Source of the DNA: Dictyostelium discoideum
Taxonomy: Eukaryota
Direction of reading: 5' to 3'
DNA: 64,000 nt
Assembly: GCA_000004695.1 (NCBI GenBank)
Contig: CM000151.3
Coordinates: 4,224,001 to 4,288,000 of the forward strand
A program made the translations under genes and the position numbers. Positions within the stretch are counted from its first letter, which is position 1; the number at the start of each line of letters is the position of its first letter. Positions 3,111 through 53,314 of the stretch are shown here, in pieces. The notes below the pieces were generated by a model that had not been told where the DNA came from, ran no database searches, and saw only the letters and a list, made by a program, of their open reading frames with translations.

Positions 3111-6916
<3,806 letters not shown>

Positions 6917-7350
6917 TAATTATTTTATTTGTGTATATGTGTTTGTGTGTGTGTGTGTATGTGTTTTTGTATACACGTTGAATTGCGATGAAAAGTGTAT
7001 TTTATTTATTTTTTTTATTTTTAGGTAATGTGTTTTAGAAATGTGAGTGTTGTTTTTCTGTTTTTGTTGTCGTTTTTTACTTTCTTTTATATTTATATTC
7101 CCTATTGTATCTGTATTGTTTTTTTTTGTTTTTTTTTTTTGTTTTTTTTGTTGAAAAAAAATAAAAAAATAAATCCAAAACTACTAAAACTTCTTTGAAA
7201 AAAATAAAAAAAAAAAAAAAATGAATATTAATGGAAATAAAAAAAACAATAATAAAAAAAAAATATTTAAAAATAAATGTTAGTTTAAAATCCTTATTAT
7301 TTTTATTATTATTATTTTTATTATTATTATTATTATTTTTATTATTATTA

Positions 7351-7449
<99 letters not shown>

Positions 7450-7821
7450 AGGGTGTTTGAATGAATGAGGGTATGAATACCACTATTTATATTTATATGT
7501 TATTAGTGTTGGAGGTTATTGTTTTTTGTTATTATTATAATAGTGTTTTTACAACTTAGGCGTTATATGTAAATTTCATACATTTGTATATAAATAATAA
7601 CAAAAACAAAAAAATAAAAAAAAAAATGAAAATTTTTCAATCAATGTCGAAAAAAAAAAAAAAAAATTTAAAAAAAAAAAAATTAAAAAAAAAAAATAAA
7701 AAAAAATAAAAATAAATGAAAATAGTAAGTTAATGAGAGAAGAAAAAAAAAAATAGTATGTTAATGAAAGAAGAAAAAAAAAATTTGAATAAAATAAAAA
7801 ATAAAATAAAAGTCAAAGGTG

Positions 7822-33953: not shown

Positions 33954-35675
33954 AAAATTTGAATCATTTGGTGAAGTTGATAAATCTAAAGAATCACCTA
34001 ATGAACTATTTGAAGATGATGATGATTTAATTGGTCTTGAATTAATAGCACTACTATTTGATCTACTATTTGGACTTATACTACCACTACCACTATTACT
34101 GCTGCCACTACCACTACCACTACTACTACTACCACTTGATTTATGAAAAATTTTAATTGCATAAGAATTCATTTTCTTACCATTATTATCAATTACACCC
34201 ATTTGAATTCTTTTTATTGATGTAAGATTAAACTGTTTAAAATGAACGATTTTATTCTCATTAAAATTATATTTACATCTAACTAAATGAGAAGGTGTTA
34301 AGAGTAAGATACGTTCTTGTTCTTGATTACGTTTATTGATTGAAATAACGATCCAAGCATTAATGAAACCTTCACCAAGTGTTGATGACTCTTTTGAACG
34401 TAAGAAATGATCTACACAATTGTTTATGGCATCCATACGAGATTCACCCCAATCATATTCATTTTGAATGGAACGAAAGTTTTGAGCACTTTTATAGGTG
34501 TCAACAGTGGTCAAACCCAAGAAAAGGTCAATTGAAACTTGTCTAATTTTATCCAAGAAATTGTTGATGTAATAACGAGTCAACGAGTTTACACCATCTC
34601 GGAAAACACCTTTTGTATTTCTTTTACCAGTACGAGTGTAATCACCCTTCAAAGCTTGAGTACCAGCATATTGGAATGAAATTGCATCACCATTATTTGC
34701 CCATGCCAATTTAATCGATCGAGTTCCAGGCAATGATTGATCTTTAATTCTCCACTCGAAACCCAATCGTTTCAATTGTCTCTCCAATACTGATACACCA
34801 ATCATTGATTGTACCAAATTGGTACGATCTAAACAATCCAAACAATTGGTACGAGTTAAACCATGTTGATGTTGAGTGTAGCCTTGTTCTGAATTTCTCT
34901 CTGTATATCCAATATGTTGATGAATATTCTCCTCCAATTGATCGATCAAAATATCAACACGATCAAATCTATTACCTTGACAAAAATGGTGGAAATCGAA
35001 TGGAACGAAATCAATCTCTCGATAACCGCTTGTAACTGCCATCATTCTATACGCTTCACCCAATTCTGCTTCTGATCCTTTTTGATCTAATAATGTCACT
35101 AGCACTTGTGGTCCTGGTCCATACAATTTAATTTGTTCATCGAAATGAGCACGAAATGAATTTGAATTCAATTGATTATCTTGGGTAATCTTTATCTCTG
35201 GTTTAATCTTTCTACCAGTTTGTTCCCATATCAATGGTATACTACCTCTAGTTTGTACAAATGAAAATGTTGTCTTCTTTCCACTAGTTGGATCTTGATG
35301 TGATATAATTTGTTCTGTCTCTACATAATTTGCAACATTTCCATTATGATCTGATCCTCTTGTATTATATCTTGTACCCGCTCTAAATTTACTCCTTCTT
35401 GATATTAATAAAAATTCAATATCATTTCTTTCAATAAAAAAGTTTATAATTTCAACATCTTTTTAAAAAAATAATAATTAGTATTTACTATTAATCTATA
35501 ATAAATAAATTAATTCATAATAAAAATAATAATAATACATACAACCTCTAATCAATGGTAATACCCAATTATAAAAACCACCTTGAATTAAATTAGTTTG
35601 TAAATGTTTATTCCAATAAAATCTACTATTGAATACTTCAAAAAGATGATAAATTGTTTCTTGTGATTCTGTTAA

Positions 35676-35708
<33 letters not shown>

Positions 35709-36491
35709 CGTTGTTGTTGTGTTTTCTTCATTTACATTTGTGTTGTTGTTTGTTTGTTTATTATGATGATTTTTAAAATGATTTTCAATATTATCAGAAA
35801 TATTATAATCAAAACAATAATAAAAGTTTGATTTTAATAAATTCTTTAAAGATTTTTTATAGGTTGATTCCATTTTACGATCATGTTCAGATAAATCGGT
35901 TGGATTATTACTAATGAGGATTAAATTACAATTTTCAATACGATAAATATATTTTCCACCAAAACTACCAATTAATTGTTTGCCAGTTATAACTATTAAA
36001 TATGGTCCTGATAATAAATTAATAATACCAACTATACCATACGCTAAAATAGATTGTTGATGTAAACTACTACTACTACTACCACTACCACTACCACTAC
36101 CACTACCACTACCACTACCACTACCACTACCACTACCACTACCACTACCACTACCACTACCACTACCTTCTTTACTATTATTTAAACCATTATTCAATTC
36201 TTTATGATTAAAACTATTAATATTGCTACTACTATTACTTCTTATACTAAAATCTACACTACTATTTAATGATACTTCACCATTACTACTATGATGATGA
36301 TGATGATGACCACTACTCTTCTTTTTAAAATCACTACTATTATTTATTAAATATTCGGTTGAATAATATTGTGATGTTATTTTAAATGTTGATCTATCAA
36401 TTACCAATGATTCAATATTTGAGTTTGTAGATGTATTAACTGAATTTGCTGGTTTAACTACGATTTTATCTTTTAATTGATAAATTGACAT
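33363..36491 (-). CDS. SAC-domain phosphoinositide phosphatase of about 1015 aa, Sac2/INPP5F-like with an hSac2-type region after the SAC domain, join(35543..36491, 33363..35458) on the minus strand
   Basis: ATG at 36489-36491. The SAC N-lobe has AYGIVGIINLLSGPYLIVITGKQLIGSFGGKYIYRIENCNLILIS and FYWNKHLQTNLIQGGFYNWVLPLIRG. A GTATGT donor at 35542 (phase 1) pairs with an AAAAAG acceptor at 35459, giving an 84-nt intron. The splice yields LPLIRGYVEIINFFIERNDIEFLLISRRSKFRAGTRYNTRGSDHNGNVANYVETEQII, which is collinear with Sac1. The catalytic CX5R(T/S) motif RTNCLDCLDRTN and IKLAWANNGDAISFQYAGT are present. A Ser/Thr/Asn-rich C-terminal extension follows. Confidence 0.85.
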
Positions 36492-36530
36492 AACCCTATA
36501 TAATTCTAAATAATATATGTATGAATTTTA

Positions 36531-36651
<121 letters not shown>

Positions 36652-36664
36652 GAAATAAATAATT

Positions 36665-36899
36665 TTAAAAATATAAATTTATTTTTATGTTTAACATACC
36701 ATGATATTTAACTTTAAAATCGAATTTTTGAGAAGATTTTAGACCACCACTACCACTCATACTTGCTCTAGTATTTCCATCCATTGAAAAACTACCTCCA
36801 AAATTAATATTACCACTACTACCATTGCTAAAGTGTAAATCGCTCATATCTTCAAATGTTGAAAATTCATTACTTACTTCATCTCCACCATTATTTATA

Positions 36900-36965
<66 letters not shown>

Positions 36966-36978
36966 CCATTTAAAAATA

Positions 36979-37060
<82 letters not shown>

Positions 37061-37272
37061 CATTTCAAATTCAAATAAATTTGAGCCACCATTATTACTA
37101 CTATTACTATCAGTTTGTAAATCTGATGTTAAACGATCAGTACTTCCCATTTTATTATTAAAAACTTTTAATAAATTTGAACTATCAGATGGTGGATATG
37201 ATGACATAACTTTACTTGATCCAAAAATTGAAACTGTTGGTTTAATACCCTCATCTTCATATGTTGTATATA

Positions 37273-37312
<40 letters not shown>

Positions 37313-37957
37313 ATTATTATTACTATTATTATTATCTATTTTTTTATTTGTTTCATTTTCATTTTCACTTTCACTATCCGAATAAATTGTTTGGGATGGT
37401 GAGAGTGGTGGTGAATTTAAGTGTAATTTATTGGATATATCACTATCTACATCGTTATTTTTATCCTTATTTTCATTATCGTCTTCATCAATATCTTCAC
37501 CTTCTTCATCATTATCATCATCATCATCTTCTTCTTCTTCTTCTTCTTCTTCATAATCATCATTTAATTGTGAATTTAAGGTTGAAGGAGGTGGTGGATG
37601 TTGAATATATACAATATTTTCTTTTGCGATTGTCAATGTTGACCTATTATTAATTTTATTTCTAATTTTAATATCATTATTGATTTGTTCTTCTTCGTTA
37701 ATATCATCATCTTCCTCCTCTTCTTCTTCTTCTTCCTCTTCCTCCTCTTCCTCTTCTTCCTCCTCATCTTCTTCATCTTCATCTTCATCTTCTTGTTTAT
37801 ATGTTTTTGGAGGGAGTGGAGGAGGAGGTGATGAAGGAGGAAAATCATTTATTGTTGGTGGTGATGTTGATTCTGTAATCCTTCTATTACCAATTGTAAT
37901 AGATGGTCTTGGATTTCCTCCAAAATTTGCACTAGATGAAAGTTTGAATGAACTCAT
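36665..37957 (-). CDS. Acidic low-complexity protein of 430 aa with poly-E/D, poly-N and a Pro-rich N-terminus, function unknown
   Basis: ATG at 37955-37957. A continuous ORF ends at TAA 36665. It consists almost entirely of (GAA)n, (GAT)n and (AAT)n coding repeats. The stop is followed by a GTATGT that could splice in-frame into the SAC gene ATG (see findings). Confidence 0.5.
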
Positions 37958-38905
37958 CTTTTATTATAGTTTCTTGCTCTATAAATAGTGTTTAAATATT
38001 TTTATTTTTATTTTTTTTTTTTTTTTTTTCTATTTTTAAATTTTATATTTTTCCAAAGTACGTGTGAGTGTTTAAATTGATTGATTCAAAAATTGTGTAA
38101 CACCACTTTTTTTTTTTTTTTTTTATCGAGATTTATGCTTTATTATTACTATTATTTTTTTATTATTATTATTATAATTATTATAATTTTTTATATTGTT
38201 GTACGTAAACAAAAAAACAAAAAAAAAAAAAAAAAAAAAGACTTGTTTTTTTAGCTCATCCAAAAATAATATTGGGTCTTTTTAAAGAATCTAGTGTGCA
38301 ATAAACAAAAAAAACGTGCAAAAATTTTTTTATTTTGAATTTTCAACCATTTAAAAAAATATAAAAAAAAAATAAAAAATAAAAAAAAAAAATTCATATC
38401 CAGTGGTTTTCATTCTTCATAATTTAAAAAAAATCTTCTTTTTTGTCTTTTTTTTTTTTTTTTAGTAAAAGAAATAAAAATAATAAATATATAAAACTAA
38501 ACACATAAATAAAAAATAAATGTAAAAAATAATTATTAATAATGTATAAATAAGATTGGAAAAAATATAAATATATTTATATTTTTAACTTAAAACCTTC
38601 ATCAATATATTTTTCTCTCGAACTCGCTCTCTCACAAAAAGAAGATACATCTTAAATCTATTTTAATAAAAAGAAAAAAAAAAATTTAAACTTTTTTTAT
38701 TCCATTTTTTCAAGCCAAAAAAAAATAAAAAAAAATAAAAAAAAATAAAAAAAAAAACAAATTTAAAAAAAGATTTTTTAAAAACTAAAAATAGTTTATC
38801 TAATAGAAAAAAAAAAAAAAAAAAAAAAAACAGAATTAATGAATTACTTTTGTTAAGAAAAGTAAAGATAAAAAAATTTCCTTAATTAACATGTAATTTG
38901 TCTTC

Positions 38906-38938
<33 letters not shown>

Positions 38939-39102
38939 TTTTTTTAGATTTTTTTTAAATTTAATTTTTTTTATTTTTATTTTTAATTTTTTTTTTTTTA
39001 TTTTTAATTTTTTTTAAATTTAATTTTTTTTATTTTTATTTTTAATTTTTTAGTTTTTTTTTTTCATTTTTTTTTTTTAGGGGTCGACACCAACACAAAT
39101 TG

Positions 39103-40506
<1,404 letters not shown>

Positions 40507-40541
40507 AATAATAATAATAATAAAAAAAATAATAATTAGTA

Positions 40542-40603
<62 letters not shown>

Positions 40604-40715
40604 GATATACCTATTTATATTTACATGTCACATTATAGTCTATAATAAAAAAATAATAATAAAAAATAATAATAAAAAGTAATAATATTAATAATAATTT
40701 AATATAAGGTGGTGG

Positions 40716-40755
<40 letters not shown>

Positions 40756-40801
40756 TTTATTTATTTGTTTTATTTATTTTCATTTTAAAAAATTATTATT
40801 A

Positions 40802-42628
40802 TTAATTCGTGCAATGATGAAGATCATCAGCATATGACTCATCATTTATTTCAGTAATATTATTAATTTCATCACTTTCAATGATATCTTGTGTATCAAT
40901 TTCTACTACATTTTCACCATTACTATTATTAATATTATTACTATTATTGTCATTTGTATTATTATTATTATTATTATTAATAATTGAATTAATATTGTCA
41001 ATTAAATGATGATCATTATTATTATTATTATTTTGATGATTTTGATTATTATTTTGATGACTTATAAAACTTTCATTACTATTTACATTTGAGGTATTTG
41101 CGCTACTTATACCACTACCACCACCATCAGAACTTGCACCATCACCACCACCATTATTATTATTATGATTTAAGGTTGAAATTTTATTACAATTATTATT
41201 GTTTTTTTCAAAATTTTTATAATAATTATTATTATTAATAATATCAATGTCCGTACTTGCACCACCAACACCACCATTATTAGTAATATTTTGAAATGTA
41301 TTATTATTATTATTATTAACAATATTTAAATCATTTTCTAGAGTTGTTTCATTCTCTAAATATTCACTTTCAATTGTATCCATATCGATTGAATCCAATG
41401 TTTTTGAAGGTGTATTAAATGAATTTGTTTTTTTATTTGTTTTTGATTGTTTTTCAGCATCACCATTCTTTACAAATGAACCTTCTTTTGGTTTCATAAT
41501 AAATAATAATTCAATTACTAAAAACATTTCCATTGAATGCACAACTGCTAATAATGCAAGATTACCTTCTGGTTTTTTTGATAATCCTAAAAAAAAGAAT
41601 AATGAAGGCGGTATAATTGATGTAAATAAACTAACTGAAACTGCAACTGTAATAAAACATAACTATTTAGAAAAAAAAAAAATAATAATTATTAATATTA
41701 TTATATTTATTATTATTATTATTATAATAAATATATTATTTACTTTTCTTAAAGTTGATTTCTTTTTTCTTTTATCTTCAGGGATTAATTTAATTTTTTT
41801 AATTAATAATGAACCATAAGTTGCAAAACCAACTAAACATAAAACAATAGAAATTATAACATAAAGATTGTATGCTGTATAGAAACCTGTATTATTTTTA
41901 GTTGAATCAATATTTCCCAATATTACTCGAAATATTTCAAATAATAACCAAATTGAATTTGCAATAATAAAAATTGGTTTAGTTTTATCAATTGCTTTTC
42001 TACTTGCATGGGGTGATAATTTAATTGCTATTGAATGATATGTATGAGCCCAATATAATAATAATATTTCATATGATGTAAATAAAACATAAATTGGTAA
42101 ATTATACATAACTTCTTCACCTAATGGTGATATTAAATTACTTCTTCCAAATGGATCAAATGCAAAATATAATACTCTTACTATTATTATAAAAAAAAAA
42201 AAATTAATATGTTTATTTATATAATTATTATTATTGTTATTGTTATTTAAAAACTTACAAATTAAAAATATTAATACAACAATATGATTTATTGCTTTAA
42301 GTTTGTGTACAAGTTTATCAGTTTTCCAAAATTTAAATGATCTGTAACTTTGAATTAATGTAATTATAAAAAGTAGTGACATTACGGCAAAGAAAACATC
42401 AATGAATGCGAAATAACTACTACCTAATACATCTTCATAATGAAGTTCACATTGATTACCAACATAATAACGATTACATTTACAAATATTATTAATACAA
42501 ATACCATTACTACTACAATCAAATATTGATGTTCCATTACAATAGCCCACTGATAATTCATTAATATTATCAAAACTACCACCACCAACACCAACATCAC
42601 CAGTATTAAATGTTGTGTTTGTAGTCAT
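40802..42628 (-). CDS. EGF-like-domain seven-transmembrane protein of about 581 aa with a long N-rich cytoplasmic tail, join(41744..42628, 40802..41662) on the minus strand
   Basis: The true ATG is at 42626-42628; the ORF-track start at 42634 is TTG. The N-terminal EGF-like Cys pattern is CNGTSIFDCSSNGICINNICKCNRYYVGNQCE. Six TM helices lie in exon 1. A GTAAAT donor at 41743 (phase 0) pairs with a CTAAATAG acceptor at 41663, giving an 81-nt intron. Exon 2 opens with the seventh TM (LCFITVAVSVSLFTSIIPPSLFFFLGL) and continues into a low-complexity tail. Confidence 0.7.
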
Positions 42629-43603
42629 TTTCAAATTTTATTTATTTATTTATTGAAAAATAATGTTTTAAAAAATAAATAATTATAATGATTTTATTTT
42701 TTTATTTATTTTATTTTTTTTTTTAATTAATTTTTTTTTTTAAACATATATTTAATTATATTTTAATATTTTTTTTAAATATTTTAATTTTTTCTCTCTT
42801 TTTCTTATTAATCAGTATGTTAAGTTTTATTTTTTTTTAATTGATATTTTAGATATTGAATTGCTTTTTCGTTTTTATATATATATGTATAAAAATAAAA
42901 AAAATATAATTTTATCTTTGTTGGTTTTAATGAATCATTTATTATTATTATTTTTAATATTTTTTACTTTTTTTTGTTTTTTTATAATTTTTATATATTT
43001 ATTAATTATTAATATTATTATTATTATTATTAATTATTTATTATTTATAATTTTTATTTTTATTTTTATTTTTATTTTTATTTTTTTTTTAATGTTATTA
43101 TTATTTTTTTTTTTTTTTTTTTCCTCAACTGTAAGTAGTTTTTTGTTTTTTTTTTGTTGTTGTTGTTGCAACACTATTCAACTAGTTGTGTTGTATATAA
43201 TATTATTATAAAATTAATTAAATAAAATATATTAGTGGTTAAAAATAAATCTTTCCTATTCAAGCCAACAAAAAAGAATAATTAATAACAACATAACCAA
43301 AATCTAATATTATATCATAATTTAAATTTTGATAATCACTCAGCTTAAAAGCCAACGGACACATACTGTCACTCACACACTCACACTAAATTTATTTTTT
43401 ATTTTCTCACCAACCACACATTTCTCTCACACACTCTATTTAACACACTGGCACAACATATGCACCCCCTCTCGCTCAATATATCATATTAACCACACTT
43501 AATAATTTTTTTTTTTTGTTATTATATATATATATATAAAGTGGGTGTTAGTGGGTGTTATTTTTATATTTACCCAAATAAAATTTATTTATTTCATTTT
43601 CAT

Positions 43604-43648
<45 letters not shown>

Positions 43649-43927
43649 AAACAAAAACAAATATAAAAAATGAGTGAGATTTTCTCATTTTTATTCTTTT
43701 ATTCTTTTATTCTTTTTTTTTTTTTTTTTTTTTAATTTTATTTCTAAATTCAATTTTATCATTTCATTTCTATTTTTATCTTTTTTTAAAAATGATTAAA
43801 AATTAAAAACAACAATATTTGAAGATTATCCAATTAAAAATAATAATAATAAAAATTTCATTTGAAATGATGATTAATTGATTATTTTAAATTTAAATAA
43901 CAGCCAAGATTTTAATATATTTTTTTT

Positions 43928-43973
<46 letters not shown>

Positions 43974-44032
43974 ATTATTTAAAAAATAAAATAAGATAAT
44001 CCAATTAATAATAAAAAAATGATTTCACATTT

Positions 44033-45330
44033 TTAAAAAAGTTTTTGAACAATTAGTAAAAATACCAATAAACATACTGGAGCTGATAAAGTTGATGATA
44101 TTGATAGGTCATTATTTGGAGATTCAGTTGGAGATGAGAGTGGTGATGCACTTGGTGATGCACTTGGTGAGGAACTTGGTGATTCACTTGGCGAAGAACT
44201 TGGTGAGGAACTTGGTGAGGAACTTGGAGAAGGTGAAACATATTGAATATATGAGACTTTTGAAGTGGTAGTGGATCCACCAATATTTAATGTTAAGATA
44301 TAATCATTACCAATTTTATTTGGTGGATATGTAATTGTGAATTTTGAATCTGCGATTGAAGAAACTGAACATAAAATATCATTTATACTAACTGATACTA
44401 ATGAAACATTATTTGTGATGAATGAGCCTTCAATATCAATTGAACCAACAATTGAATATAAAATTAAAGTCTTTTGATTAATTTTAATATATGAGAAATA
44501 ATAAAATTTCATTTCATTTGAATTTTGGTTACCAACAATAACATCAAAATCAAAATTCGAACCAGTAAGAGAGAAAAAGTAATTACCATTATCATTCAAA
44601 AAGGAATAAGATACTTTCCAATTTGGAATGATTTTGTAATTTGTGCATTTTTACCAACACCTTGAGGAGTAAAGAATGAAAATTCTGAATTAGGAATAGA
44701 CATATCTAAATCATTAACTGACCAACCTAGGTTTCTACCTGTTAAAATAAGGACTCTTCCCTCAGTTGGGAACAATTTTGTATAATTTTCAACACTTGAT
44801 TCAAACCAAACTAAAAGATATTGTATAAATATATACATTTTTTAAACTTGCTGGTAAAACAGTCGTATTTGGAACATTATTACTAAGTTGTTGTAAATTC
44901 CTATAATAATTTAGATTTTTTATTAAAAAATTAATATTAACATATAAAAAATAACCAAATTGTTGTTGTTGTTGTTGTTATTGTTATTTATGTAATTTAT
45001 AAAAAAATATTTACAAATTTTGTAATTTTTCAAATTTATACATTGATTAATAAAATGGTAAATTAAAACCAATATTTTTGCCTAAATTTATATTTGTTAA
45101 ATTTGGTAATTTGTATGAATTTGGTTCGGAATATAAATTTAATGAGGTAATAACTTGATAATTTGTTTTACGATCCACAATACATATAACGTAAGAAGAG
45201 TCACATGGATTGGAATCCTTACTAATACCATAATGAATATAACAAATCTGAAGCTAAAGATTTTTGAGTTGGTTCAACTTCACATAAATAAAAAAAATGG
45301 AAAAAATAATACTAAATATTTTCATTTTAT
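44033..45330 (-). pseudogene. Degenerate paralog (copy A) of the downstream GPI-anchored surface-protein gene. It has multiple frameshifts and an internal deletion of about 1.26 kb relative to copy B.
   Basis: The signal-peptide exon MKIFSIIL... at 45330 is frameshifted relative to copy B at 48446. Its ORFs 44596..44838 and 44033..44599 sit in different frames but align to copy B (VENYTKLF..GRNLGWSV..MSIPNSEFSF..QGVGKNAQITKSFQ and FITNN.S..SVSINDILCSV..KFTITYPPNKIG.DYILTLNIGGSTTT..S/P-rich..GPI tail). DNA at 44700-44920 aligns to B 46540-46625 joined directly to B 47885-48010. Confidence 0.6.
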
Positions 45331-45652
45331 TATTATTATAAGTATTATTTTTTATTTAAAAATAAAATAAAAAATAATTTTTTTTTTTAAAGAATTTTTC
45401 TTTTTTTTTTTTTTTATTTTTTTTAATTTATTTATTTATTTAATTTTTAAATTATTTAATTATTTATTTGTTTTTTGTATGTTTATTTGTTGCTTGTTTG
45501 TTTGTTTGTTTTTTTTTTTAAAAATTATTATTTTTGTTTGTGAAGGATAAAAATTTAATAATTTCATTTATATTTTAAATTTAATAAATAATTATTTAAA
45601 AAATAAAATTTAGATAATCCAATAAAAAAAAAAAAAAGATTTAATATTTTAT

Positions 45653-47166
45653 TTAAAAAGTTTGAAAAATAAGTAAAAATACCAATAAACATACTGGAAC
45701 TGATAAAGTTGATGATATTGATAGGTGATTATTTGGAGATTCAGTTGCAGATTCAGTGGGAGATGAGCTTGGTGATTCACTTGGTGGTTCACTTGGTGAT
45801 GCACTTGGTGATGCACTTGGTGAAGAGCTTGGTGAAGAGCTTGATGAAGAACTTGGAGAAGGTGTAACATATTGAATATATGAGACTTGGGTAGTGGTAG
45901 TGGATCCACCAATATTTAATGTTAAGATATAATCTTCACCAATTTTATTTGGTGGATATGTAATTGTGAATTTTGAATCAGGGAATGTTGAACTGAACAT
46001 AAAATATCATTTATACTAACTGAAATAAATGAAAAATTATTTGTGATGAATGAGCCTTCAATATCAATTGAACCACCAATTGAATTTAAAATTAAAGTCT
46101 TTTGATTAATTTTAATATATGAGAAATAATAAAATTTCATTTCATTTGAATTTTGGTTACCAACAATAACTGAAACAGTAAATTCACCATTAGTTGCTAT
46201 TGTTGGAAAGTCAATCATAGGATATTTAATAATATGATTATTATCACCACTAATCTCTGCCTTTCCAAATTTATAAGGTGAACCATTGATAATCACAGTA
46301 TTGTTTGAATTAACATCGAAATCAAAATTTGAACCAATGAGAGAGAAAAAGCTATTTCCCTTATCATTCAAAAAGGAATACGATTTAATTGTTGGTGGAA
46401 GATAGCCATATTGGAATTGGTATGTTTTACCATTTTGGAATGATTTAGTAATTTGTGCATTTTTACCAACACCTTGAGGAATGTAGAATGAAAATTCTGA
46501 ATTTGGAATAGACATGTCCAAACCATCTACTGACCAACCTAGGTTTTTGCCTGTAAAAATAAGGACTCCACTACCATCAGTTGTGAATAATTTTGTATAA
46601 TCTTCATTAACTTCAAAATCTGAACAATTTGGCTTACTTGAGGAATCGAAATTTGAGAATGGATTTGGATGCAAATTTTGAGCATTACCATAACCAATGC
46701 AAAGAACACATTATGGTACTGTTCCATCTAATTTATTATTACTCAAGTGCAATTTTAATTTACAATATGACTCTGGAATATCACCAATAACCTAATAATA
46801 ATAATAATAATTAAAATTAAAAGAATTTAATTTTATAAAAAAAAAAAGTGAACCAACAAAATTTACTTACTAATGAACTATCTATGGAAAGATAGGTTAG
46901 ATAAGGAGCATCGTCAATATTTGGTAATGTTTGCTCGAAACGATTATTAGTAATTTGTAATGATGATAAATTTCCTAAACTAATCTTTTCAAATGGATGT
47001 GAAGAATTAGCTGTAAGATATTCTGTTTTAAAGGGAAAAAAAAACATGGTCCATTACATTGTTCAAACGATAAACCATAATCATAACGCATGGTACTTGT
47101 ATAAAATAAATGTGATATAAAAATAAATATAAATAAATAATTTTGTTGTAAATTTTGTACAACAAC

Positions 47167-47263
<97 letters not shown>

Positions 47264-48446
47264 CTACAATAATAATAGCAACTTACAATTTTAAAGGGTT
47301 AAAAACATTAATATGATAAATCTGTAAAGCCAATAGATGGATCATGGATAAAACCTTGTCCTTCAATTGTTAATATTTCAAGCATTGGTGTGTTTAATAA
47401 TATTTGTTTTAAAACATTTCAATTTCCAATACAGGTATTTTCCAAAAAATAATGACTGTTTATCTTACGTTGATTGTGTTTAATAATATTTTACTAAATG
47501 AAATACCTTGTGGTTTAGTGGTAGGAATAAAAGTAAGATAAAAAGCTATTATTTTTTGGAAAATACCTGTATTGGAAATTGAAATGTTTTGGTAACCGAC
47601 TTCCATGCCATTATATATATCCAAGCTCAAGTATTCTAAATTTGGGCACATTTCACTAATGTTTAATGGAATATTTGAATTATCTAATTTAAAACAAATA
47701 TTATTAAACACACCAATGCTTGAAATATTAACAATTGAAGGACAAGGTTTTATCCATGATCCATCTATTGGCTTTACAGATTTATCTAATTGGAAGTCCA
47801 AGTTCTCTCAAAAAAAATTCTTTTTAGTAAATTGTTGTGGTAGACTAAAACCAACAGATGGAAAAATCACTTTAAAAATTACAATACTTGATTCAAACCA
47901 AACTTTACCTAGTGGTACAGATATTGCACTGATAAACACATATTTCAAACTTGTTGGTAAAACCATATTATATGGAACGCTATTATTAAGTTGTAGTAAA
48001 AACCTGTAATAATTTGGATTTTATATTAAAATTAATTTAAAGAATAAAAAAATTGTTGTTATTTTTGTAATTTATAATATAATATTTACAAATTTTCTAA
48101 TTTTTCAAATTTATACATCGATTCATAAAATGGTATGGTAAAACCAATATTTTTGGCTATACTTAAATCTGTTAAAAAATGGTAATTTGTATAAATCTTG
48201 ATGTATTTCATAATATGAATTTGGTGGAATAATAAAATCCAATTCTGTAACAACTTCATAATTTTTTGAAGGTTCATAAACCCATTCAATGTAATAAGTG
48301 TTGCATGGATTAGAATCCTTGCTAATACCATATAATGAATATAACACATCTGAAACTATAGATTTTTGAATTGGATCAACTTCACATTGAACTAAATTTA
48401 AAATATAAATTAAAAAAATAGATAAAATGATACTAAATATTTTCAT
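45653..48446 (-). CDS. GPI-anchored cell-surface glycoprotein gene (copy B). It has a signal peptide, LRR-like segments, an Ig/IPT-like region and a Ser/Pro-rich stalk. It is multi-exon, with at least one apparent frameshift, so it may itself be a pseudogene.
   Basis: ATG at 48444-48446 with signal MKIFSIILSIFLIYILNLVQC. LRR-like ORFs lie at 47460..47801 and 46817..47047. A GTAAGT donor near 47285 is followed by an intronic (CAA)n tract at 47161-47270. ORF 45922..46674 is Ig/IPT-like, and 45653..46000 contains TITYPPNKIG, the S/P stalk (SPSASPSASPSEPPSESPSSSP) and the hydrophobic GPI tail LSVPVCLLVFLLIFQTF. At about 45985 there is a 1-nt deficit relative to copy A (tcagggaatgttgaactgaac versus tctgcgattgaagaaactgaac), which shifts the frame between the last two ORFs. 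Confidence 0.45.
47311..47790. repeat. Inverted repeat inside the copy-B gene. Arm 1 (47311..47456) is the reverse complement of arm 2 (47561..47790) except for a ~100-nt segment present only in arm 2. The spacer is about 100 nt.
   Basis: Direct comparison shows that the reverse complement of 47311-47456 equals 47561-47603 joined to 47703-47790. For example, caaaacatttcaatttccaatacaggtattttccaaaaaata pairs with tattttttggaaaatacctgtattggaaattgaaatgtttt, and aatctgtaaagccaatagatggatcatggataaaaccttgtcc pairs with ggacaaggttttatccatgatccatctattggctttacagatt. Confidence 0.85.
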
Positions 48447-48481
48447 TTTATTATTATTATTATTTTTATTATTATTATTAA

Positions 48482-48548
<67 letters not shown>

Positions 48549-48704
48549 TATAATTTAAAATAAATTTTTTTTTTTTTTATATAAATAAAAGTAAAAAAAA
48601 AAGGAAAAGAAAAAAAAAAAAAAGGAAAAGAAAAACAAAAAAAATCATTTCACAATTAAATCAAAAAAAAAAACACCTCAAAGAACAATTTTTCTTTTTT
48701 TTCC

Positions 48705-48735
<31 letters not shown>

Positions 48736-49672
48736 ATTATTTATTAATTTGTTTATTTATTTTTTTATTTATTTGTTTATTTGTTTTTTTTTATTTATTT
48801 ATTTGTTTTTTTATTTATTTATTTATATTTATTTATTTATTTATTTATTTATTTGAAAAAGTTTTTAAAAATTTCTGTTTGATTAATTGTGTATGATAAA
48901 AATTTAATATAATTTATAATAAAATATTATCTTTTAACCAGTTAAAATTATTTTCATTTGATTATTTTCATAAAGTTATAAAGATATTTATCAAATTAAA
49001 AAAAATAAATAAAAAAATAAAAAAAAAGTATAATTCTATTTGTGATTTAAAAAATAATTTATTTTTTAGTCATTGAAAATAATTAAAAAAATTAAAAATG
49101 AAAGAAAATAATAGTTATTTTTTTTTTATTATTTAAGATTTCAAAAATATTCTCTTAATTTTAAAAAAAAAAGAAAAAAACAATGAAACAGTAATTTTAA
49201 AATAAAAAAAAAAAAAGTTAAAATAATAATAGTGGTTGTAAAAATAATAAAATTCTCAAAGATATCTTTTAAAAAATTTAATTATAATAATTATATATAA
49301 CAAAACGATTTTATTTTTGTTTATTTTTTTTTTTTTTTTTTTTTTTACTTTTCACAATGAATGACTTTGTGTTGATGGTTTTAATTAATTAAAATAATAT
49401 TATTTTTTTTTTTTTTAATAATTTTGGCCAAAATTAAAATTTTTTTTTTTTTTTTTTTTTTAATTTAAATTAATTTTTGTTTTTTTTTTTTTTATTTTTC
49501 AAAATTGATTATTTTTACAAAAACATACACACAAAAAATAAAAAAATAAAAACACATACACACATACATTCACTCATATATATACTTTACTTTTTTTTTT
49601 TTTTTTTTTTTATTATTATTAAACCTCACACTTTTTTTAATATTGCACCATTTAATAATATAATAATAAATA

Positions 49673-51158
49673 ATGAAAAAAACAAAAGATATTGGAATTT
49701 GTGCAATTGACATTTATTTCCCACAAACCTATGTAAATCAAAGTGAATTAAAGAAATATGATAAAGTGTCAAATGGTAAATATACAATTGGATTAGGACA
49801 AACCAATATGTCATTCGTTGGAGATAGAGAAGATATAGTATCGATGGCAATGACATCAGTTAAAATGATGATGTCAAAATATAGCATTGACTATCAATCA
49901 ATTGGTAGACTAGAAGTTGGTACAGAAACAATCATTGATAAATCGAAATCAGTGAAATCATCAATAATGTCATTATTTCAAGAATATGGTAACACATCAT
50001 TAGAAGGCGTCGATACATTGAATGCATGTTATGGTGGTACCAATGCATTATTTAACAGTTTACAATGGATTGAATCAAGTTATTGGGATGGTAGATATGC
50101 GTTAGTGGTAACTGGCGATATCGCAGTCTATAGCAAAGGTGCAGCTCGTCCCACTGGTGGTGCTGGTGTCGTCACAATGCTAATTGGTCCAAATGCAACA
50201 TTAATATTCGACCAATCATTACGTGGCACTCATATGGAGAATGTGAACGATTTCTATAAACCTGACCTATCAAGTGAATACCCCTATGTTGATGGTAAAT
50301 TATCAATTGAATGTTATTTAAGAGCATTAGACAAATGTTATTTAGAATATAAAAAAAAATTTGAATCAATCAATGATGATAATAAATTTTCAATGGATTC
50401 TTTTGATTATGTTTGTTTTCATTCACCTTATAATAGATTAGTTCAAAAATCATACGCTAGATTAATATATAATGACTTTTTACAAAATCCAAATAACCCA
50501 AAATATCAAGACCTTTTACCTTTTAAAGATTTATCAACTGGTAAAGACAGTTATATAAATTCAAAACTCGATCAAATCACTCTAAAATTATCATTGGATG
50601 ATTTTAAAACTAAAGTTAATCCTTCAACTTTACTCTCAAAAGAATGTGGTAATAGTTATTGTGGTTCAGTTTATAGTGGTATTTTATCATTATTATCAAA
50701 TGTTAATGATTTAGTAAGTGTATACACTAAATAAATAATTATTTTTAATTTTTTTAATTTTTTTCAATTTTATTAATTTGTTAATTTTATAGAATAATAA
50801 AAAAGTATTAGTTTTCTCTTATGGATCAGGTTTAGCGGCATCTTTGTTTTCATTTAGAATTAATAATAATAAAAATAGAAATAATAATAATAATAATAAT
50901 AATTGCTTTTTTAAAACAACAAATGATATTGGAAAGATTTCAAATATAAAAGAACGTTTATCAAATAGGGTTAAAGTTTCACCTGAAGAGTTTACAAGAA
51001 TTTTAGATATTAGAGAAAAGAGTCATCAAATGGTTGGTGCTCGTACACCAATTGATACTCTTGATTATATTTCAGCTGGTACTTTTTATCTTGAAAAAAT
51101 TGATGAAAAGTTAATAAGACATTATAAGTCTAAGCCAATTATATCTTCAAAATTGTAA
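49673..51158 (+). CDS. Hydroxymethylglutaryl-CoA synthase (HMGCS), 468 aa, join(49673..50713, 50793..51158)
   Basis: The sequence IGICAIDIYFPQTYVNQSELKKYD...GRLEVGTETIIDKSKSVKS...NACYGGTNALFNSLQWIESSYWDGRYALVVTGDIAVY...ARPTGGAGVVTMLIGPNA is a near-identical collinear match to HMG-CoA synthases, including the catalytic Cys in NACYGG. A GTAAGT donor at 50714 pairs with a TTTTATAG acceptor at 50792 (79 nt, phase 0). The C-terminal exon encodes GSGLAASLFSF...VSPEEFTRILDIRE... with an Asn-rich insert. Confidence 0.9.
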
Positions 51159-51807
51159 TAATAATAATAATAATAATAAATAATAATAAAATAATTAATA
51201 TTTTCATATATATATATAAATAGAATTAGGATCCTCCCTTTTTTTTTTTTGGATTTTTTTTTTTTAGTTTTTCCCAAAAAAAATTTTTTTTTTTTTTTTT
51301 TTTTTCATTTTCATTTTCATTTTTCATTTTCAATGAAGACAACAAGATTTCATTAGGTATTTATCATAAATCTATTCATTAAATAATATTGAACAATAGG
51401 GAGTAATAAAAAAAAAAAGAAAAGGAGCTTCAAGTAATGATGATTAAATAATTTATTATTGTATGTTGTGTGTGTGTAATTAAAAAATTTAGAAAAGTGT
51501 TAAAAAAAAAAAAAAATATTAAGAGAAAGGTCGTTACATTTTTTTTAAAAATGTATTGTTACAGTCCTTAATGCAGGATACCTATTATTTTTTTTTTTTT
51601 TTTTTTTTTATCAAATAACTTTTTTTTTTTTTTTATACATTAACACAACAAATCAAAAATGATTAAAAAAGGCGAATCTGAACATGTTAATTTTTTATTT
51701 TAATAAATAAATAAATTAAAATTTAATAAAAAGTAAACTAATTTTTTTTTTTTTAATATATGTAAATTATTGTTTATTTTTTCATTTTTTTTATTTTATT
51801 TTTTATT

Positions 51808-53314
51808 TTATTTTTTGAATTTACTACCATCAACCTTCATTTCAATTTCATCTTTATATTCTCCTTCTTCTTCTTCTTCTTCTAATTCTTCTTCTTCTAA
51901 TTCTTCATCTAATTGAATTGGATCAATCCAAGTTCTCCAAATATCTTTGCCTAATAGTAATTCAGCATCAGTTAATAGACAATTATTTAATTCAGATTCA
52001 ATTAATGATTGATTCATAGTATTACCACCAATGAAAACCAATTCTTGTCTTCTATCACCAAATGGTTCTGACCAATTCTTTTTGATTTCTTTTTGAAGAT
52101 CAAGGTTTGGATATTCATGTGGTTTTAAATCTGCTAACCAATAACCATAGTTTAAGATTGTCATTTGAACACCAGCTAAATTCCACATACCAATTAATTC
52201 AGGTGTTGATGCTATCCATGAGAAACCTTTTGAACGTAAAACACCGCCAAATACAGCCGACCCTTTTTCAATGACATTACTTAATCTTTCAGAATTGAAT
52301 GGTCTTCTTGCTTTGTAAATGAAACTTTTGATACCGTATTCAATGGTTTCAGGTACATGTGTACCTCTCAACTCTTTTAACCAACCTGGATGCTCTGATG
52401 CTTTCTTGAAGTCGAATAAACCCGTATTCAATATCTCCTTCAATGGCACCACGCTATTTGTAGATCTGAGTAGTCTGGCTTCTGGATTAATGTGTTTAAT
52501 CAGTCCTTCAATTGTTTTCACTCTCTCTTCTGATACTAAATCACATTTATTCAATAGAATCACATTTGAGAATTCAACTTGGTCTAATAATAAATCAACT
52601 AATGAACGTTCATCTTGATCAGTGGCTTGCATATCCTTGTCTTTTAAACTCTCACCAGATTGATATTGTTCTAACCATGTTGAACAGTCAACTACAGTCA
52701 CCATTGTATCCAATTTAGTATAATCTTTTAAATTCTCAATACTACCATCAATTTCAAATGTAAAAGTCTCTGCTATTGGTAACGGTTCTGAAATACCACT
52801 GGATTCAATAATTAAATAATCAAATCTTTTCTCTTTAGCTAATTTCGTCACTTCAACCAATAAATCCTCTCTCATTGTACAACAAATGCAACCATTTGAC
52901 ATTTCAACAACTGCTTCAACTTGTTTTTCCGTTGCTTTAGTTCTTGTAATTTTAAATTCATTTTCTAAAATTAATTTTGAATCAATATTAACTTTTTTTT
53001 TTAATAATAAATTAGTATTAAATTAGTATTAAAATTAAATTAAATTAAATAAATAAAAATTATAATTTACCTTCACTCATATCATTTACAATAACTGCAA
53101 TTTTTAAACCATGATTTGAATTTAAAATATAATTTAATAAAGTAGTTTTACCACTTCCTAAAAATCCACTAAGTACTGAAACTGGTAATTTCTCAAATCC
53201 TCTAACTTTAATTTTATGTAAAGTTTTTTTTAAATTTGAAGCATTTGATTTTAAATAATGTTTTTTCATTCTTCTTGGTTCTTTATTATTATTTGTTGAA
53301 GTTTTATTTACCAT
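51808..53314 (-). CDS. CobW/COG0523-family GTPase (ZNG1/CBWD-like zinc metallochaperone) of about 466 aa, join(53071..53314, 51808..52964) on the minus strand
   Basis: ATG at 53312-53314. The P-loop is [22 protein letters not shown] donor at 53070 (phase 1) pairs with an AATTTTAG acceptor at 52965, giving a 106-nt intron. Exon 2 contains the metal-binding GCICC motif ([16 protein letters not shown]) and the CobW C-terminal domain. The C-terminal tail is acidic. Confidence 0.85.

Follow-up and report, generated by a model that had tools for sequence, protein, structure and literature searches.

Two related sequences stand side by side on chromosome 2 of Dictyostelium discoideum AX4, and the question they raise is whether either of them is still a gene. 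They lie on the minus strand of the stretch of DNA analysed here (the window: 64,000 nt, positions 4,224,001 to 4,288,000 of contig CM000151.3, assembly GCA_000004695.1), between hgsB on one side and a THH1/TOM1-like gene on the other, in an AT-rich region (GC about 22–27%). Two AX4 proteins are deposited for this place, DDB_G0274529 (P0004, XP_644075.1, 597 aa) and DDB_G0274531 (P0012, XP_644074.1, 80 aa). Comparison with an intact counterpart makes it very probable that the two sequences, here called copy A and copy B, are unprocessed pseudogenes, the relics of an old tandem array for a Dictyostelium-specific surface protein. Judged by their lesions, neither would be able to make the ancestral protein.

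Copies A and B and their lesions

A blastn comparison of 43900–45450 with 45500–48600 gave three collinear blocks: A 45449–44781 matched B 48579–47873 (70.9% identity, E = 7e-108), A 44791–44539 matched B 46606–46311 (75.7%, E = 5e-65) and A 44542–43970 matched B 46170–45587 (89.6%, E = 0). This similarity is far above chance, and by this comparison A and B, both on the minus strand, are paralogs. The first-pass annotation had reported the same gene twice on the minus strand, and the three blocks (E = 0 to 5e-65) bear it out. No third copy was found in the 64-kb window by tblastn with pieces of the gene. Identity between A and B is 71–79% over their 5′ halves and 95% in the last immunoglobulin (Ig) domain, which suggests that their 3′ ends have been homogenised.

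The yardstick for both copies is a gene from another genome (prefix ACTFIR; GCA_054859385.1, JBTAPF010000017.1), whose locus L001 is syntenic with window positions 34165–52351; P0001, a protein returned by the first homolog search, led to it. At the position of B this genome has a 785-aa gene (L001 5124–7768) with four exons (5124–5479, 5590–6132, 6225–6450 and 6536–7768), GT..AG boundaries and no interruption, and its rebuilt product is the same as that of an independent gene call. The protein begins with MKILSIILSIFLILILNLVQC followed by EV, continues with about 400 residues carrying LxxLxLxxNxLxGxIP-type motifs and then about 260 beta-rich residues, and closes with a (SETP)n/SP stalk and the end ...SISSTLSVPVCLLAFLLIVQTF. 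The gene is like B in its flanks, its four-exon layout and its domain order, with exon identity of 85.6% and intron identity of 81%. Unlike B, it is open throughout, is without the two inverted insertions that B carries and has a longer (SETP)n stalk. Set against this gene, the two copies have the following parts.

45653–48446, minus strand: copy B, very probably an unprocessed pseudogene, with the ancestral four-exon layout (alignment to ACTFIR L001 5124–7768)
48446–48090, 48003–47287, 47095–46871 and 46791–45653, minus strand: exon remnants of copy B
44033–45325, minus strand: copy A, very probably a truncated unprocessed pseudogene (lesions against the intact ACTFIR gene)
45325–45015, minus strand: exon 1 remnant of copy A
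45014–44901, minus strand: intron 1 of copy A
44900–44033, minus strand: fused exon 2/4 of copy A

All three introns of B, and intron 1 of A, can be aligned with those of the intact gene and have kept GT..AG. Because intron positions and flanking DNA are retained, A and B are not retrocopies.

The lesions of B were read from a base-by-base alignment to the ACTFIR gene, which was then projected into the reading frame of that gene. There are seven frame-breaking indels and one nonsense codon, listed here in the direction of the gene (minus strand) together with a microsatellite.

48179: insertion of 1 nt in a poly-T run, exon 1, frame-breaking
47815: deletion of 1 nt in a poly-T run, exon 2, frame-breaking
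47787–47688: insertion of 100 nt, exon 2, frame-breaking
47492–47407: insertion of 86 nt, exon 2, frame-breaking
47311: deletion of 2 nt, exon 2, frame-breaking
47165–47270: (GTT)n microsatellite of about 35 units, intron 2 (sequence and indel list, which has a 101-nt insertion at 47264)
47040: deletion of 1 nt, exon 3, frame-breaking
about 46711: TAA nonsense codon, codon 402
45992: deletion of 1 nt, exon 4, frame-breaking

In-frame changes of −3, −6, −6 and −3 nt and of −84 nt in the stalk are also present, and the intron 2 (GTT)n is longer by about 101 nt than in ACTFIR. A 1-nt deficit of B had been noticed near 45985, and it was found at about 45992. As six further frame-breaking indels and the TAA at about 46711 had gone unseen, the decay of B, by this alignment, is far greater than was first described.

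The divergence of B from the ACTFIR gene is roughly neutral by these counts (Nei-Gojobori), with 0.161 nonsynonymous (dN) and 0.157 synonymous (dS) substitutions per site and a dN/dS of 1.03; by part, dN/dS was 1.23 for the leucine-rich repeat (LRR) region and 0.66 for the Ig region. We used hgsB both as a synteny anchor and as a neutral yardstick, and its dS between AX4 and ACTFIR was 0.128, against 0.157 for B; the LRR part of B is still somewhat high (dS 0.19, dN 0.23). Non-orthology of B and the ACTFIR gene was considered, as 85.6% identity in the exons contrasts with 95.6–97.5% in the flanks, and was dropped because an hgsB dS of 0.128 makes the divergence near-neutral.

Copy A, compared with the same intact gene, has lost about 1 kb in frame and carries four frameshifting deletions and one nonsense codon. 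These and its smaller in-frame losses are as follows (minus strand).

45285: deletion of 19 nt, frameshift in the signal peptide
45232: deletion of 2 nt, frameshift
45113: deletion of 24 nt, in frame
about 45047: TAA nonsense codon, codon 108
44815: deletion of 11 nt, frameshift
about 44786: large deletion, in frame, codon about 161 fused to codon about 438
44781–44791: junction of the large deletion, exon 2 (aa about 161) to exon 4 (aa about 438) (overlapping blastn segments and alignments)
44614: deletion of 40 nt, frameshift
44539: deletion of 147 nt, in frame
stalk: deletion of 96 nt, in frame

The junction is in frame, with VWFESSVE joined to NYTKLF, and the open reading frame (ORF) 44596–44838 that spans it reads VWFESSVENYTKLF. 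It joins the homologs of B at about 47873 and about 46606, a gap of 1267 nt in B coordinates, so the in-frame skip of about 1.26 kb reported at first pass holds as a distance in B. It does not hold as the size of the loss. B-specific additions make up 287 of the 1267 nt (the inverted insertions of 100 and 86 nt and 101 nt of (GTT)n expansion) and, as these were added later, the ancestral deletion in A was only about 1.0 kb, from aa 161 to aa 438 of the intact protein. Introns 2 and 3 went with it. Microhomology is present at the deletion ends, TGAA at the large junction (read from the alignments) and GTT at the 147-nt deletion.

The frameshifts that had been noticed in the signal-peptide exon of A correspond to the deletions of 19 and 2 nt, and an extra in-frame gap in its Ig-like region to the 147-nt deletion at about 44539; the deletions at 44614 and 44815 and the TAA at about 45047 are additional to that description. 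Measured against the intact 785-aa counterpart, the lesions of both copies agree with the original picture of a tandem pair of decaying paralogs in the course of pseudogenisation.

An independent assembly, the palindrome and the alternatives

Isolate ACTFIT (GCA_054883475.1) encodes P0046, 100% identical to the hgsB product of the window, and locus L004 of this isolate aligns collinearly with window positions 39673–61158 (21.5 kb, 99.6% identity, 19 mismatches). Within 43800–48750 the two genomes are only seven single-nucleotide polymorphisms (SNPs) and two homopolymer lengths apart, and ACTFIT has every indel, deletion and nonsense codon and both insertions of A and B. Because all lesions are common to the two assemblies, sequencing error and an AX4-specific variant are excluded, and with them the first-pass suggestion of a strain-specific structural variant peculiar to AX4.

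The two insertions in exon 2 of B form a palindrome.

47310–47791, no strand assigned: quasi-palindrome of about 480 nt in exon 2 of B (repeat search, self-blastn and exact-repeat mapping)
47688–47787, minus strand: insertion 1, 100 nt, exact inverted copy of 47413–47315 (four-genome alignment)
47407–47492, minus strand: insertion 2, 86 nt (four-genome alignment)

The repeat search returned inverted repeats pairing 47310–47413 with 47688–47791 (104 nt) and 47411–47475 with 47526–47590. The outer arms (47315–47413 and 47688–47786) are 99 nt long and 100% complementary; the inner arms are 47411–47474 and 47527–47590. Insertion 2 has three components: 18 nt that directly duplicate the exon sequence coming after it, 64 nt that copy 47590–47527 in inverted orientation, and AAAA. 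By the four-genome alignment both insertions are present only in the AX4/ACTFIT lineage and missing in ACTFIR (L001) and in two further lineages (L002 and L003). Since insertion 1 copies the junction made by insertion 2, it is either later than insertion 2 or part of the same event. Their composition points to a fold-back or template-switch replication error.

Between the inverted copy within insertion 2 and its source there is 1 mismatch in 64 positions in ACTFIT, and there are 5 in AX4. Five of the seven SNPs between the two genomes fall within this insertion (47454, 47458, 47469, 47472 and 47492), and at these ACTFIT has the source base, with G at four and T at the fifth on the plus strand of AX4. 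This cluster could be due to errors of the AX4 reference within the hairpin, to mutation local to AX4 or to conversion between the arms in ACTFIT. Antisense to B there is also an ORF of 134 aa (47605–48009, plus strand), part of which is genuine LRR-coding sequence in the inverted insertion, LKQILLNTPMLEILTIEGQGFIHDPSIGFTDLS; here the inverted copy is read in its original coding sense, and the remainder is a chance antisense ORF.

The deposited gene models were mapped onto the same lesions. P0004, which a HMMER search found to be 99% identical to the 229-aa ORF of B, maps to 48389–45050 in about nine pieces, each lesion being bypassed by an ad hoc 'intron'. It is without a signal peptide and without a tail of the glycosylphosphatidylinositol (GPI) type, translates the inverted insertion as protein and, after the B stalk, runs on into exon 1 of A. 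P0012 matches 44838–44599 exactly, which is ORF 44596–44838 of copy A. We infer that DDB_G0274529 and DDB_G0274531 are gene-prediction artefacts.

Two readings would keep one or both copies alive as protein-coding genes. If the frame disruptions were AX4 sequencing or assembly errors, at least B would be functional, and it is the case that several lesions lie in homopolymer runs (48179, 47815) and that the five clustered differences lie within a hairpin-forming insertion, where AX4 errors are possible. The independent ACTFIT assembly has a different contig structure, however, and carries all lesions of A and B; with a dN/dS of about 1, eight disablements in B and six in A are too many for errors, and we give this reading next to no credence. 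The reference could instead be right, DDB_G0274529 being a real, unusually spliced 597-aa gene and DDB_G0274531 a real small gene. Both are deposited as AX4 proteins, and long stretches of B are still open, but this would call for about nine pieces where the ortholog and the paralogs have four exons, for the absence of both the signal peptide and the GPI-type tail, for translation of the 100-nt inverted duplicate in the wrong sense and for the jump from the B stalk to exon 1 of A. Indels of 1 and 2 nt cannot be introns, and each model has only a UniParc-type identifier (UPI...), which suggests that neither is a UniProtKB entry any longer. That the reference models are real genes is hard to credit.

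The palindrome raises the separate idea of a co-option of B as a non-coding locus for hairpin RNA, in which double-stranded RNA from the palindrome, if transcribed, would be diced into small RNAs. As RNA (501 nt) the palindrome has a predicted minimum free energy of −245.7 kcal/mol, against −83.4 ± 5.4 for shuffled sequences (z = −30), and its stem is perfect over about 100 bp; it is present in two isolates, and the upstream region and start codon of B have been kept. Dictyostelium has active RNA interference and DrnB-dependent microRNAs (PMC6161686). Against this, there was no Rfam match for the palindrome at E ≤ 1, the locus identifiers are absent from the text and one supplement of a DrnB microRNA survey, and the arms come from B's own exon; as identity to the family does not exceed about 50%, no close AX4 paralog offers itself as a target. 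Moreover, a recent template switch would be expected to leave a long perfect hairpin behind, and no function is needed to account for it. Co-option is very unlikely on this evidence. There is a small chance that the palindrome is transcribed from the surviving promoter of B and diced, in which case a hairpin-RNA locus would here be emerging from a pseudogene. Inverted duplication is a proposed route for new plant MIRNA genes; if true, this would be the birth of a hairpin RNA by inverted duplication of a locus's own LRR-coding sequence, here in an amoebozoan.

Decay of both copies to unprocessed pseudogenes remains our preferred reading, and several observations weigh against it. The Ig-like part of B has a dN/dS of 0.66 and an open frame of 229 aa, which could reflect recent loss or weak residual constraint, half of the divergence having arisen on the branch of the intact partner. 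The promoter motif of B is nearer to the sequence upstream of an additional fragment in ACTFIR than to that upstream of the intact copy, and the ACTFIR counterpart of B may be either of these. The LRR and TIG scores of the locus itself in Pfam are sub-threshold, and the domain assignment rests on paralogs and predicted structures. Finally, A or B may have residual expression, as a truncated product or a non-coding RNA.

History of the locus across lineages

The flanking genes that frame the locus in the window are the following.

41663–42634, minus strand: ORF of the THH1/TOM1-like flanking gene
49673–51158, plus strand: hgsB (HMG-CoA synthase), exons 49673–50713 and 50793–51158 (splice reconstruction; 100% identity to P0046)

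Between closely related lineages the copy number and integrity of the locus vary, from 0 to 3 copies. In the lines below, flank identity to AX4 was taken over alignment columns present in all four genomes, and dS is that of hgsB exon 1 against AX4.

AX4 and ACTFIT: two copies, both very probably dead
ACTFIR (L001): downstream flank 97.5%, upstream 95.6%; dS 0.128; a 5′-deleted fragment, the intact gene and a 5′-truncated copy (P0001) with lesions of its own
ACTFIY (L003): downstream flank 96.5%, upstream 94.7%; dS 0.111; a single copy, divided between three gene calls, in which the exon-1 region is duplicated
ACTFIZ (L002): downstream flank 94.8%, upstream 91.7%; dS 0.223; one heavily deleted copy
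D. citrinum (ACTFIU): dS 0.40; family not detectable at the syntenic position (L006 7418–10001) in one assembly
D. firmibasis: dS 0.47; two gene calls (L005 2787–5405 and 6015–8692; 690 and 744 aa), no disruption detected

By these dS values the genomes compared with AX4 look like distinct lineages at the level of species. ACTFIR is labelled D. discoideum and looks like a separate species-level lineage or an unusually deep haplotype in this region, since its hgsB dS from AX4 is 0.128 whereas the HgsB protein of ACTFIT is identical.

Diagnostic substitutions at the 3′ end pair A with the truncated copy of ACTFIR (95% identity in the tail and 3′ untranslated region) and B with the intact copy (93–94%) and the fragment of ACTFIR. 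As each copy has its own ACTFIR counterpart by these substitutions and by position, the comparison dates the A/B duplication before the AX4/ACTFIR split (neutral dS about 0.13). The pair had been described as recently duplicated; with counterparts of this age, and with 5′ halves only about 71–79% identical, that description is given up. The lesions are private to each copy, and the ACTFIR counterpart of A retains the 40-nt and 147-nt segments that are gone from A. Copy A is thus a separate old paralog whose deletions took place in its own lineage, and not, as had been proposed, a deletion derivative of B.

An earlier date, before the split from D. firmibasis, was considered in view of the two apparently intact copies there and was set aside, as copies cluster by species in the Ig region, those of D. 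firmibasis with each other and not with A or B. Our claim of age stops at the AX4/ACTFIR split because independent duplication and concerted evolution are not separable beyond it. Over this region the amino acid identity of the D. firmibasis copies is 59–64% to a tandem pair of ACTFIY at another locus (P0006/P0007) and 46–48% to B.

Two further features of the related loci were recorded. Between the intact and the truncated copies of ACTFIR lies a 2.2-kb insert (L001 7850–10100) that contains, on the opposite strand, a gene call of 340 aa; the insert had no Pfam match and no match in the window or the other loci compared. In the single copy of ACTFIY (L003 9832–10810) part of the exon-1 region is repeated in tandem, an (AAT)n run lying between the two units. 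By multiple alignment the second unit is nearest to the intact ACTFIR gene (85%) and the first unit is about equally far from all copies (74–78% identity); pairwise blastn gave 80% between the first unit and copy B. The duplication may be a fusion of two former copies.

The lesions and the comparison of lineages would fit the following course. The array at this locus would turn over by birth and death, and in the AX4 lineage selection would have been lost and the copies left to decay. Replication slippage would have given the indels of 1–2 nt in homopolymer runs and the microsatellite expansion, and the deletions would have arisen via short microhomology at the junctions examined (TGAA, GTT). 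In B, two fold-back or template-switch events would have inserted inverted copies of adjacent exon sequence and so made a young palindrome of 480 nt.

The protein family and what its decay means

The type of protein that the array once encoded can be read from both the remnants and their relatives. Three further features of the copies bear on it.

45988–46674, minus strand: longest open frame of B, 229 aa, covering the first two IPT/Ig-like domains and the start of the third (ORF list, predicted structure, fold and HMMER matches)
45692–45870, minus strand: S/P-rich stalk and C-terminal hydrophobic tail of B, …SPSSSPTESATESPNNHLSISSTLSVPVCLLVFLLIFQTF* (translation)
44033–44250, minus strand: equivalent of the stalk and tail region in A

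The termini encoded at the locus are MKIFSIILSIFLIYILNLVQC followed by EV at the N-terminus and ...NNHLSISSTLSVPVCLLVFLLIFQTF at the C-terminus, which ends in a hydrophobic segment without a cytoplasmic tail. The pattern of an S/P-rich stalk and a hydrophobic tail points to a GPI anchor. In Pfam, the intact ortholog gave only sub-threshold matches to LRR_14 (E = 0.015) and TIG (E = 0.085; 13.3 bits against a cut-off of 20.9), and the fragments of B gave no match. PRK6 LRR was a further sub-threshold match for the locus (E = 0.14), and LxxLxLxxNxL motifs are visible, e.g. 'LHLSNNKLDGTVP'. An AlphaFold2 model of the 229-aa ORF, made with the family as alignment, was all-beta, with predicted tandem beta-sandwiches and a mean confidence score (pLDDT) of 85.2, and the Foldseek matches of this model in PDB were tandem Ig-like domains, including the IPT domains of MET.

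The same 229-aa ORF was the query of a phmmer search against 1.84 billion representatives, which returned 35 relatives at E ≤ 1e-3, 22 of them at E ≤ 1e-10. A word-indexed homolog search had given only P0001–P0003, missing P0004 and the paralog family that the exhaustive HMMER search recovered. About 20 of the relatives are 740–770 aa long and match the Ig-like region at residues of about 410–660 (E 1e-55 to 1e-10). They come from D. discoideum, D. firmibasis, D. citrinum, D. dimigraforme and D. purpureum and are named 'hypothetical' or 'IPT/TIG domain-containing'; relatives in other Amoebozoa are IPT-repeat giants. Three paralogs, P0039, P0009 and P0006, score above the TIG threshold (31.4, 23.3 and 21.4 bits). 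Of the profile search for LRR, IPT/TIG and Ig folds that the first-pass annotation had proposed, the TIG part succeeded with these three paralogs while the locus's own sequences stayed below threshold. A predicted structure of the intact paralog P0006 (pLDDT 84) has a signal helix and then short, regularly spaced strands (residues about 50–400), followed by three beta-sandwich domains (447–675), a disordered stalk (679–731) and a terminal helix. The folds matched by this model were of two classes, IPT/Ig tandems (plexin, MET, titin) and LRR ectodomains (PGIP, MIK2, PSKR, BRI1, LINGO-1, InlA). The protein type given at the outset (putative signal peptide, probable LRR region, IPT/Ig-like region, S/P-rich stalk and putative GPI-type tail) is supported by the TIG matches of the family, the models and the fold searches.

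The ancestral protein would have carried, after a signal peptide, an LRR solenoid of the plant type (about 350–400 aa), three IPT/Ig-like domains, a presumably O-glycosylated S/P-rich stalk and a C-terminal hydrophobic GPI-type signal. An architecture of this kind makes a GPI-anchored receptor for recognition or adhesion, in which the LRR part would bind the ligand, the most likely identity of the intact protein. DDB_G0269740 (Q55D91, 'IPT/TIG domain-containing protein'), DDB_G0284073 (Q54Q70) and RB653_002085 of D. firmibasis share the predicted architecture (signal peptide, LRR, three IPT-like domains, S/T/P stalk and hydrophobic tail); members of this LRR-IPT/TIG family are 25–49% identical to B in the Ig-like region and are intact, mostly at other loci. 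More distant likenesses are structural. Animal LINGO-1 (2id5) and bacterial internalin A (2omv) match the model of the paralog, an LRR solenoid followed by Ig-like domains, at the level of fold, and so do the plant LRR ectodomains of PGIP (1ogq), MIK2, PSKR and BRI1; the LRR motif of the locus, LxxLxLxxNxLxGxIP, is of the plant type. With 10–19% identity and low TM-scores (owing to domain orientation), these are cases of structural analogy and not of family membership, and they are transmembrane, secreted or wall-anchored, in contrast to the GPI-type tail here.

Within Dictyostelium, the Tgr allorecognition proteins have IPT/TIG extracellular domains with a transmembrane helix and are not known to have an LRR region, and their genes are tandem, fast-evolving and variable in copy number; PsA and gp80 are GPI-anchored and have an O-glycosylated spacer rich in S and P. 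No Tgr name was found among 20 relatives looked up, and the likeness to Tgr is by description only. Literature searches for DDB_G0274529, DDB_G0274531, the LRR-IPT family and the new assemblies turned up nothing relevant, and the family is without a described function.

The decay of A and B is ordinary for a gene family and does not overturn current understanding; it is the LRR-IPT family itself that is uncharacterised. For the databases, in which a chimeric protein of 597 aa now stands, DDB_G0274529 and DDB_G0274531 should be retired or relabelled as pseudogenes. The palindrome is a well-resolved natural example of a probable template switch, available in a pristine form (ACTFIT) and a slightly diverged one (AX4). 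The locus as a whole offers a clean, dated case of birth-and-death in a fast-evolving LRR-IPT family of social amoebae, in which a series of losses runs from one intact gene in ACTFIR and two gene calls without detected disruption in D. firmibasis to very probably dead copies in AX4 and absence in one D. citrinum assembly. Such lineages are natural knock-outs with which the role of the family, for example in adhesion, self-recognition or the sensing of bacteria, may be asked.

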